Made by a program: the position numbers
Part shown: one piece after another, positions 33,001 through 36,000 of the stretch
Layout: each line of letters begins with the position of its first letter
Numbering within the stretch: position 1 is the first letter of the stretch
Assembly (NCBI GenBank): GCA_048268245.1
Contig: JBLWVX010000016.1
Span: forward strand, 1-53,730
Direction of reading: 5' to 3'
Source: Arcobacteraceae bacterium
GTDB taxonomy: Bacteria; Campylobacterota; Campylobacteria; Campylobacterales; Arcobacteraceae
Length of the DNA stretch: 53,730 nucleotides

Positions 33001-36000
33001 TTCGTTTACCATTTTTTCAATTTCTTCATCAGATAATCCAGATGAACCAGAAATAGTAATTTTATTCTCTTTACCAGTTCCTTTATCTTTAGCAGATACA
33101 TTTAAAACACCATTTGCATCAATATCAAATGTTACTTCAATTTGAGGAACACCTCTTGGAGCTGCTGGGATATCAGATAATTCGAACATACCTAAAGATT
33201 TGTTATCTTTAGCGAACTCTCTTTCACCTTGACCAACATGAATTGATACTGCTGGTTGATTATCTTCAGCAGTAGAGAATACTTGAGATTTTTTAACAGG
33301 GATAGTTGTACCTTTTTCAATTAACTTAGTCATAACTCCACCTAAAGTCTCAATACCTAAAGATAATGGTGTTACGTCTAATAATAATACATCTTTAACA
33401 TCACCTTTTAATACACCAGCTTGAACAGCAGCACCAGCAGCAACTACTTCATCAGGGTTAACACCTTTATTTAAATCTTTTCCAAAGTACTCTTTAACTA
33501 CTTGGTTAGCTTTTGGTAATCTAGTAGATCCACCAACCATAATTACTTCTTCAATTTCATTTTTATCTAATCCAGCATCATCAAGTGCTACTTTGATATG
33601 ATCTAAAGTTTCATTGATTAAGTGCTCAGTCATAGACTCAAATTTAGCTCTTGTTAAAGATTTAACTAAGTGAACTGGTCCTGCATTACCCATAGAGATA
33701 AATGGTAAGTTAATTTCTGTTGAATCAGCAGAAGATAACTCTTTCTTAGCATTTTCAGCTGCATCTTTTAATCTTTGTAATGCCATTTTGTCATTTTTAA
33801 TATCAAAACCATTTTCAGCTTCAAATTCACTTGCTAACCAATCAATAATCGCATTATCAAAGTCATCTCCACCTAAGAAAGCATTACCATCAGTTGATAA
33901 TACTTCAAAAGTACCATCACCAATTTCTAATACAGTAACGTCAAAAGTACCACCACCTAAATCATATACTAATACTTTTTCTTCACCTTTTTTATCTAAA
34001 CCATAAGCTAATGAAGCAGCTGTTGGCTCATTGATAATTCTTAATACATTTAAACCAGCAATAGTACCAGCTTCTTGTGTTGCTTTTCTTTGTGCATCAT
34101 TGAAGTATGCAGGAACTGTAATAACTGCATCAGTTACAGGTGCCCCTAAATATTCTTCTGCATCAGCTTTTAATTTTCCTAAAATTTTTGCAGAAATTTC
34201 TTGTGGAGTATATACTTTATCAGCAATTTCAACAGCTGCTGCACCATTTCTATCAACGATTTTATATCCAACTTTTGATTGTGCTTCTTTAGCATTTTCT
34301 TCATCCATCATAAGACCCATAATTCTTTTAATAGAATAAATAGTTTTTTCAGGATTTGTAATAGCTTGTCTTTTTGCTGGATCACCAACTAATACTTCAC
34401 CTTTGTCAGTGAATGCAACAATTGATGGAGTAGTGTTTTTACCCTCTTTATTAGAGATAACTTTTGCTTCTCCATTTTCATAAACTGCCATACAAGAGTT
34501 TGTTGTACCTAAGTCAATTCCAATTACTTTACTCATTTTTTTTCCTTATCAAATTTTTATTTTTGTTTTCAAATATACATTTTAAAATCTATTAGTTTTA
34601 TGACATTCCGGTCATAGTTTTCCTGAAATAGCATATTTTAGGCTAGTTCAAGGCAGACAAGAAATCTAAAGGAGGAGCTTACTTCAAGTAAGTGAGTCTT
34701 TTAGATTTCGTAGTCGAACGCAGAAATAGTCAAAATATGTCTATTTCTTACAGATACTTACCATCGCTGGTCTTAGCAATCTTTCTTTTAATTTATAACC
34801 TTTTTGAAGCTGTTGAACTATTTGTCCATCTTCATGATCAGGGCTATCAATTTGCATTACTGCATCATGGAAGTTTGGATCAAACTCACCATCTGTTTCT
34901 ACTACTGAAATATCATGTTTTTCAAATGCTGTATAGAAGTTTTTGATTGTTAATTCAACACCTTCTTTTAACTTTCCAAGTAACTCTTCAGCTGGCATAT
35001 CTTTACCTGCTTCCTCAGCAGCTAAAGCCATTTCTAAAGTATCAATTGGAGCTAATAAATCTTTTGCAAACTTCTCACTTGCATAATCAATAGCTGCATA
35101 TTTTTCTCTCTCAAGTCTTTTCTTGATATTTTCAAAATCTGCATGTACTCTTAAGTACTTGTCTTCTGATTCTTTTAACATAGCTTCTAATTGAGCTATT
35201 TTTTCTTCAGAACTTAACTCTTTTTCTTCACATGACTCTTCACAAGTCTCTTGAGTTTCTTGCTCAGTAACTTCTTCGTTTACAACTTCGTCTTTTTTTT
35301 CACTCAATTTTTTCTCCTATTATTAAAAGCTTCTAATTTTTTCATAAAAGAACTCATAATCTTTTGCAAGCTCTCCAATTACTAATATTTTTGCATCATT
35401 TCCTTCGATGCTACAACTATGGCATATTCCCATATAATCTTGAGGTAAAAGATTTTCAAAATAAAGTCCTTCTTCTACTTTATTTAAAATCTCACCTTTT
35501 AAAAAACTATCAATTGTTATTTCATCAAAGTTATAGCTTAATGCCAAGTTTAAAAACTCTTTGTAATTGAAAACCTCAAAGTTAGAGTTTTGCAATGTAT
35601 AAATAATTACATTATATACTTCATATGCGCCTACATCTTTTGAGATTTTTAAAATATCTTTTAATGATAAGCTTATCATATCACTTAAAAATCTATAAAG
35701 TGCATTAGAATATTTTACATTTATTGCAAATGAAGTAAACTCTAATATCATATATTTATCTTCAACATTAATTATGTTTTGCAGTAAATCAGAGTCCTCT
35801 TTTTTTAAGAATACTGTAACTCCTACTTGAGATGCATAATATTGTAAAGCTTTTAAGTTAATCTCATTTAATTTAAAATTTAACTTACCTTTCCAATATT
35901 GTTTTAAAGCTTCAATAGTTGGTGTTCTACCACTACTGATATGCTCTTGAGCTAAAAAACCTTCATCTCCTAACTTTTTAAAGTATCCTCTAATAGTTGC

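Follow-up and report, generated by a model that had tools for sequence, protein, structure and literature searches.

The gap between grpE and dnaK of this Arcobacteraceae bacterium contains a long hairpin that a preliminary description of the genome named a true ERIC. According to the passages of a review used here (PMC10969869), ERIC is confined to Enterobacteriaceae and Vibrionaceae. The locus thus raises the question of whether an ERIC is present in an Arcobacter relative and, if its relationship with ERIC is only partial, which part of the element is shared and conserved. The following features are considered, with positions in the window, that is, the whole stretch of 53,730 nucleotides analysed:

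34625..34747, + strand: ERIC-core hairpin element, 123 nt including the outermost pair; the motifs and the better fold are on the + strand
34649..34654, + strand: 5' internal-loop motif CAAGGC, likewise present in the E. coli consensus of PMC2759123 (Table 1a) once this is reverse-complemented
34674..34695, + strand: apical core GGAGCTTAC-TTCAA-GTAAGTGA, a helix of 6 bp in which a G-T wobble is fixed and which opposed GA steps close
34717..34723, + strand: 3' internal-loop motif AACGCAG, outside every search pattern
34741..34747, - strand: final 7 nt of grpE, TAG stop included; foot of the hairpin, mirrored at 34625-34631
34741..35307, - strand: grpE, the gene upstream; its stop codon is where the element starts (Pfam GrpE, E 3.7e-48)
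32644..34536, - strand: dnaK, the downstream co-directional gene (Pfam HSP70, E 1.9e-250)
34601..34614, - strand: host palindrome TGACCGGAATGTCA, upstream of dnaK and outside the element, kept at filled and empty sites

The hairpin between grpE and dnaK

The motifs CAAGGC, GGAGCTTAC-loop-GTAAGTGA and AACGCAG were recovered within the place given for the element in the preliminary description, and this single copy does fold as one long hairpin, as had been claimed. The + strand gave a minimum free energy of -48.3 kcal/mol (z = -9.0), with none of 200 shuffles as good, and the - strand one of -35.9 kcal/mol (z -6.7). Matches of the two covariance models described below covered positions 34621-34748 (51-copy model) and 34623-34746 (enterobacterial model). 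The codons at the end of grpE are also found at empty sites (e.g., L089), so that the bases at the foot of the hairpin are host sequence. The palindrome TGACCGGAATGTCA has one exact match in the whole genome. No Rfam family was found over the element, either with E up to 1 in the window or at the gathering score in 18 loci, and neither a terminator-like site nor an excess of promoter-like sites was detected around it. Contigs from three public DNA runs span the element with no joint skipping it, and one public RNA run does not reach it, so that these runs are uninformative.

Homology to ERIC and copies in the genome

Two covariance models were built, both with Arcobacteraceae sequences excluded so as not to be circular. 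The first comprised 29 enterobacterial-type ERICs, and the second 51 copies that were neither Arcobacteraceae nor enterobacterial. Model building left out thirteen loci that had inserts or branches or probably matched by chance, and a further 19 of the remaining 70 loci were left out of alignment A3. On this genome the independent 51-copy model returned exactly the eight sites listed in the preliminary description, with E from 8.6e-21 to 0.02, E-values that are rough. The 29-ERIC model returned four of the eight (E 1.7e-6 to 3.4e-5), the grpE-dnaK copy having an E of 2.4e-5. In addition, a comparison by eye with the E. coli consensus of PMC2759123 (Table 1a), read as its reverse complement, showed all the motifs with the same spacing.

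The grpE-dnaK copy has the internal motifs and spacing of ERIC, forms one long imperfect hairpin of 123 nt (~124-127 bp in strict ERIC) and belongs to a dispersed intergenic repeat of eight copies, with filled and empty sites. The CCC-type IS630 ends (TATACCC...) of strict ERIC were not found on this copy and are not shared among those of G003 and other Arcobacteraceae, and the C18 copy is the only one in this genome (G000) that starts with TATACCC. A TA lies near both feet of the grpE-dnaK copy, in AT-rich DNA, and is at most a putative target duplication. The ERIC1R primer matched, with at most two mismatches, 13 of 231 loci, all of them enterobacterial-type and the grpE-dnaK copy not among them.

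The designation as true ERIC is therefore upheld for the homology of the core and the cross-phylum spread, and fails for the IS630-type terminal repeats, which are neither found on this copy nor common to Arcobacteraceae; any TA duplication is at most putative. Since the Arcobacteraceae copies have no shared ends, the grpE-dnaK element is an ERIC-core homologue and not an ERIC in the strict sense. Absent primer sites were read in PMC3566208, in the part used here, as absence of ERIC from Arcobacter; the ERIC-core copies correct the reading that missing primer sites mean that ERIC is simply absent.

Conservation of the internal fold

The statement that the stems vary and yet stay paired held on re-analysis: the stem covariation score was 0.604, as compared with 0.167 in shuffled and at most 0.161 in slid alignments, the structure being derived from the same alignment. 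Likewise, 87% of the stem cells were paired against 62% after shuffling, structure and alignment again not being independent. Five of the six pairs of the apical helix are invariant, partly fixed by the search pattern, and the sixth covaries. Mismatches in the free outer stem were one-sided (G-A 286 vs T-C 28; G-T 191 vs A-C 52), and it is therefore on the motif strand, whether as RNA or as ssDNA, that the structural constraint acts. Both parameter sets also gave this strand the better fold (151 and 143 of 157 cases), a preference partly built in by the pattern. The arms tolerate branches and nested hairpin inserts. The family conserves its internal fold and not its ends, and the conserved unit is probably a single-strand fold of ~75 nt, made up of two internal loops and the apical helix, between exchangeable outer arms.

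Distribution across bacteria

The exact pattern was found in 93 of 151 Arcobacteraceae genomes, the reversed control giving no matches, and in only 3 of 239 genomes of other Campylobacterales. At least 120 stretches were matched in a scan of the collection that was biased against enterobacterial copies of the typical kind. As judged from their record titles, the matches listed include Bacteroidota, Bacillota, Desulfobacterota, Nitrospirota, Campylobacterota and many Gammaproteobacteria, and the cross-phylum spread claimed earlier is thereby borne out. The AACGCAG motif, which was never searched for and had been reported to lie downstream, was present together with the 5' motif and at the correct spacing in 144 of 157 non-redundant matches. 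A few intragenic matches (e.g., L119 and L222) look like chance. Matches were also found in 34 viral contigs, mostly at the margins of enterobacterial prophages; among the others are a prophage of clostridial type and a Bacteroidota element that carries primase and mobilisation-type genes. A literature search that left aside most subscription papers and ISfinder yielded no report of the ERIC core outside Gammaproteobacteria or within IS5/IS1182 ends. What is known as ERIC is a single packaging of a cross-phylum element that extends much further.

Ends of the elements and candidate transposases

Three types of ends with matching target footprints were observed: IS630 with TA, IS5 with 5 bp and IS1182 with a duplicated terminator. 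The ends of enterobacterial ERICs aligned with those of ISEc40-like IS630 elements ungapped from base 1 (19/24 at best), significantly for 6/8 left ends and 7/8 right ends. This link was already in print for MITEPlu5 (PMC6267812).

The Porphyromonas copies are 175-bp elements whose ends equal the ISPg4/MITEPgRS repeat, a terminal repeat of the IS5 family (PMC4596501, Table 2), and 20/25 of them have 5-bp target duplications. Core-less elements of 20-27 bp with the same ISPg4-type ends are common in Porphyromonas, so the core is dispensable for DDE movement. There are also 64-bp derivatives in which one arm is copied from the other.

Clostridial copies end in IS1182-type repeats, and the end of one Clostridiales copy matches the left end of an IS1182 of the same genome at 15/16 bases. 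In a complete Clostridiaceae genome with at least 124 pattern matches, 16 of the 20 copies examined had a duplicated 18-31-bp terminator on either side. Palindrome targeting, with a pathway in which the entire stem-loop is duplicated, is described for IS1182 members in the part of PMC5678879 used here. IS1182 was found neither in that Clostridiaceae genome by two Pfam families nor in G154 by PF13751, and the helper was therefore shown in the same genome only once. No autonomous IS bearing the core was seen. The Nitrosomonas locus L389 was discarded as a fourth family of ends, its perfect match being another copy of the element and not the neighbouring IS5; only a looser match near an IS5 fragment remains, which is not counted as a family.

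No shared end was found among the copies of G003 and other Arcobacteraceae. Mean within-genome identity was 0.50 in this genome (6 copies) and 0.56 in G003 (25 copies), and it was 0.93 and 0.97 in IS-ended families. IS-like ends with target duplication, and near-identical copies, as in a DDE-mobilised MITE, were thus not seen in the Arcobacteraceae copies; the enterobacterial, Porphyromonas and clostridial relatives have such ends and duplications. IS630 is absent from this genome and from 14/14 high-copy Arcobacteraceae; it occurs in 15 of the 151 Arcobacteraceae genomes with no association with the core (p 0.27). IS4/IS5-type DDE genes were missing from 4/5 genomes tested (0 in G000, G003, G009 and G082). 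The co-occurrence of Y1 transposases with the core was weak (48/93 vs 17/58, p 0.011); no Y1 gene was found in this genome or in 6/14 high-copy genomes, and only 1 of 24 Y1 loci had a core in it. IS4/IS5-type DDE, IS630 and Y1 were each rejected by these genome searches as movers of the Arcobacteraceae copies.

Position in Arcobacteraceae genomes

The stop codon of the antisense gene lies at the motif-3' foot in 53/63 Arcobacteraceae copies, as compared with 25/87 elsewhere. These stop codons are TAA in 30 cases, TAG in 22 and TGA in one (936, 277 and 116 genome-wide, respectively). At convergent loci both feet are often on stop codons, so that erosion of spacer DNA may contribute to their placement. 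The grpE-dnaK gap was filled in 5 and empty in 25 of 30 genomes, 28 of these gaps having also been searched with the covariance model, and two different variants occur within one genus. In gene-ascertained samples the core was kept at nrdB in 22/30 and at HI0933 in 18/29. Each of these two sites has three variants that, on inspection by eye, are common to several genera, a pattern that points to the site having been exchanged horizontally. The genes that come next belong to 12 families in 18 and 17 families in 22 filled sites, and to 9 in 11 and 7 in 8 empty sites; being hypervariable with or without the element, they do not support cassette capture. At two HI0933 sites the ends of cargo genes fall within the arm. 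A gene pair is flanked by tandem copies, and copies are also present in rRNA spacers.

In a register-anchored test, the far arm mirrors at least 7 of the last 8 nt of the host gene in 11/47 Arcobacteraceae copies, against 1.2% in the null, and such mirroring was found in 0/13 copies outside Arcobacteraceae. An energy-based mirror test gave a weak difference (11.3 vs 9.3 paired nt). From the mirrored gene ends and the arm-copied Porphyromonas derivatives we infer template switching.

Clustering of 925 neighbouring ORFs, with Pfam searches on the 99 nearest neighbours, gave only housekeeping genes and no linked enzyme; neither an integrase nor a transposase was among the 99. The reverse transcriptase adjoining the C12 copy was rejected as a partner enzyme and is cargo, because other genomes carry other genes there. 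No convincing half-elements flanking a gene were found in this genome or in the other loci compared.

Orientation and replication

It had been claimed that between co-directional genes the element always lies in one orientation. This was not confirmed as a general rule: the antisense:sense ratios were 26:1 in Arcobacteraceae, 18:7 in other non-enterobacterial copies and 3:7 in enterobacterial copies, all three on heuristic ORF calls, and 12:5 in one Clostridiaceae genome. The lone sense exception in Arcobacteraceae (L042) is an artefact of ORF size. Sense orientation is tolerated mainly at convergent loci. What remains of the rule is a strong bias confined to Arcobacteraceae and linked not only with transcription but also with replication direction and stop codons. 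Orientation-dependent behaviour of ERIC in Yersinia has already been published (PMC2229807, in the part used here); the link with the replication strand is new here.

Replichores were inferred by means of GC skew, or of dnaA together with a terminus that was assumed, and related genomes do not provide independent sites. On this basis the motif strand was the leading-strand template in 23/24 copies of G003 (18/19 where the skew is clear) and in 47/54 copies of four complete genomes with dnaA located. The baseline of co-orientation in G003 was 57% for all genes and 58% for conserved genes in the same regions (binomial p ~5e-5). In this genome the motif strand was on the leading-strand template at 5/6 informative sites, including the grpE-dnaK copy, with a gene baseline of 68%. 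The Clostridiaceae genome gave 83/111 of the copies listed, a figure without a gene baseline that may only reflect gene orientation. The same leading-template bias is described for the attC bottom strands of sedentary integrons (PMC5371416, in the passages used here).

Origin and maintenance of the element

The reading that we prefer, with a probability of about 0.58, places the element in a cross-phylum "ERIC-core" superfamily: a single-strand fold within exchangeable arms, whose IS ends would be captured by template switching and whose core would be kept as a recognised single strand. IS-ended lineages would move in trans as MITEs. The Arcobacteraceae copies, in contrast, are probably old and site-bound, and their present spread would be due mainly to the entire site recombining between genomes. 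The basis for this site-bound view is the lack of shared ends, the ~50-56% identity, the stop-codon starts and the site-specific variants across genera. Template switching between the arms would keep them paired and would copy adjacent DNA, either the last codons of the gene or an IS end, into the far arm, and it is by this copying that new IS ends may be acquired. In the least certain part of the scheme, the core would be kept since a step that might copy or remove the element recognises the motif strand in folded, single-stranded form, most likely as ssDNA. Survival would then be best when the motif strand is neither in the operon mRNA nor exposed on the lagging-strand template. Neighbour and family searches found no mobilising enzyme for the Arcobacteraceae copies.

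A more far-reaching version, which we consider rather unlikely, is that the core is itself an old unit, mobile or recombinogenic, that at least six phyla share. As a folded single-strand substrate it would have an enzyme of its own, would favour stop codons and one of the two replication strands, and would repeatedly capture and hitch-hike on IS630, IS5 and IS1182 ends. Classic ERIC would in that case be chimeric, and an ssDNA mobility system spanning several phyla would still have to be found.

Among the other explanations, each of lower probability than this version, the one that survives best, although improbable, is a host-domesticated RNA element. The RNA of the motif strand would act on antisense or convergent transcripts as a barrier or processing site, or, as has been proposed for Yersinia, the opposite strand would tune the decay of the upstream mRNA after the departure of the ribosome from the stop codon. 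However, the replication bias is not predicted by transcription alone, the strand whose fold contains the conserved non-canonical pairs is as a rule not the mRNA, and the grpE-dnaK site is empty in 25/30 loci. These points weigh against what the foot on the stop codon (53/63), the high retention at nrdB and HI0933, the tolerance of sense orientation mainly at convergent loci, the copies in rRNA spacers and the orientation-dependent RNase E effect reported for ERIC (PMC2229807 and PMC10969869, in the parts used here) would suggest.

Slightly less probable still is that an ordinary IS630-type MITE family, strict ERIC, spread between phyla, the Arcobacteraceae copies being decayed relics and the covariation arising from neutral palindrome repair. 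The published IS630 link (PMC6267812, in the part used here), reproduced in this work, would agree with this, as would the TATACCC start of the C18 copy, the TAA or TAG stop codons at 52/53 feet and the visible arm copying. Nevertheless, conservation of the internal loops and not of the ends is the reverse of what a DDE MITE shows, and palindrome repair would erase the unpaired motifs instead of keeping them. Moreover, other lineages have IS5 and IS1182 ends and footprints, and IS630 is absent from this genome and from all 14 high-copy Arcobacteraceae.

An attC-like single-stranded recombination site, or an HUH (REP/RAYT-type) substrate, that would aid the capture of cargo genes at operon ends is the least credible explanation: it shares with attC the stop-codon start, the purine-rich folding bottom strand and the leading-template orientation (PMC5371416, as above) and could draw on the cargo genes ending inside the arm, the tandem copies flanking a gene pair and the weak Y1 co-occurrence, but the next gene is equally variable at empty and filled sites, no integrase or transposase is among the 99 neighbours, and Y1 is missing from this genome and 6/14 high-copy genomes, with the core in only 1/24 Y1 loci.

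In the superfamily reading, one core is found in the ends of three unrelated transposase families, or in none, and the interior of a MITE can be a selected module in its own right, able to pass from one carrier to another. MITEs are treated in reviews as deletion derivatives of one IS family. Why the inside of ERIC is conserved and why its orientation is biased become testable questions, with the replication-strand bias as a concrete handle.

Comparison with known systems

REP sequences carry a terminal GTAG/CGTC tag. The ERIC-core element resembles REP/REPIN with RAYT in being a small hairpin repeat after stop codons, with long persistence and tandem arrays; unlike them, it has neither that tag nor a consistent Y1 partner, and no cognate RAYT (Y1) gene was found in this genome, and a core lies in 1/24 Y1 loci. 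The consensus core boxes of attC are paired AAC/GTT. With integron attC the element shares structure over sequence, a purine-skewed folding strand antisense to the gene and the leading-template bias, since the ERIC-core copies do have such a strand on the leading-strand template. It differs in that, by inspection, it has no paired AAC/GTT boxes, the genes upstream are housekeeping genes, no integrase is nearby (none among the 99 neighbours) and cargo varies with or without it.

With regard to the IS1182 family (e.g., IS1272; stem-loop-targeting), the clostridial relatives have IS1182-type ends and duplicate whole terminators; this applies to them and not to the Arcobacter copy, and there was no core within one IS1182 examined. 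The IS5-family MITEs of Porphyromonas (MITEPgRS and BrickBuilt, with ISPg4 ends) are approached by the Porphyromonas ERIC-core relatives, which have the exact end and 5-bp duplications, but the published descriptions, in the parts used here, do not mention an ERIC-type core in those MITEs, and the Arcobacter copy is without ISPg4 ends.

ERIC/IRU/RU-1 (MITEEc1; MITEPlu5 of Photorhabdus) differs from the Arcobacter copy in the TATACCC IS630-type ends and the primer site, which the latter does not have, and in the TA duplication, which is at most putative in the latter; the Arcobacter copies are ~50-56% alike within a genome and their host is outside Gammaproteobacteria. Both, nevertheless, have all three internal motifs with their spacing in a single hairpin of ~125 nt, are intergenic and placed after genes, and are present in some genomes and absent from others.

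The grpE-dnaK gap

The gap between grpE and dnaK, which was compared in 30 genomes, is a hotspot for several kinds of miniature element. Those gaps lacking the ERIC core, the conserved folded centre of the ~125-nt hairpin, were frequently occupied by other hairpin repeats, including these two:

Gaps of loci L087, L092, L103 and L105: hairpin repeat with GGTTGAATTTATTTCAACC tip
Gaps of loci L087, L092, L104 and L106: hairpin repeat made of heptamer repeats

Two further features were located in this region of the window:

34601-34614, minus strand: palindrome TGACCG-N-AATGTCA, upstream of dnaK
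35323-36114, minus strand: 263-aa ORF, directly upstream of grpE

The palindrome, possibly a regulator site, was retained in almost all of the 30 gaps, and a single exact match to it was found in the genome under study (G000). A motif resembling it was also observed after nrdB, another recurrent site of the ERIC core, in loci L443 and L455. The 263-aa ORF gave no match in a Pfam search; its position suggests the HrcA-like repressor of Campylobacterota.

Genes and operons beside other copies

Two genes were found beside other G000 copies of the core:

C12:72131-73051 (L031:6132-7052): reverse transcriptase, retron St85-like (E 5e-50, below the cut-off)
C38:15867-16669 (L032:3868-4670): HEPN-like gene (weak Pfam match)

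The stop codon of the reverse transcriptase falls within an arm of the C12 copy, and genome G073 carries the same cassette. The HEPN-like gene and an overlapping partner, which together look like a toxin-antitoxin pair, lie directly beyond the guaB copy. Cores were likewise identified in rRNA operon spacers:

L130:3168-3317 and 3960-4109: a gammaproteobacterium, with the cores in the sense direction of the operon
L372 and L376: two operons of genome G231, with the core lying antisense and flanked on each side by a tRNA gene

Inserts, arrays and transposon-type ends

Several copies contained nested small hairpin inserts or were arranged in arrays:

L033 (G000 C4:86423-86586), L118, L141, L145, L182, L021, L446 and L456: nested inserts
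L178:3960-4634, G412 C1:3849804-3850443, L225 and L491: head-to-tail arrays of 2-5 copies

The same ~20-nt hairpin insert was seen repeatedly in the nrdB copies. Some array copies join the left half of one variant to the right half of another, which implies that recombination has occurred within the core.

Compared by eye, the end of a Pseudomonadales copy (L228:249-375) is nearer to the IS630 repeat than the enterobacterial ERIC end is. In Porphyromonas (G154, L264-L282), very abundant elements of 20 and 27 bp consist only of two ISPg4-type ends, many of them with 5-bp duplications.
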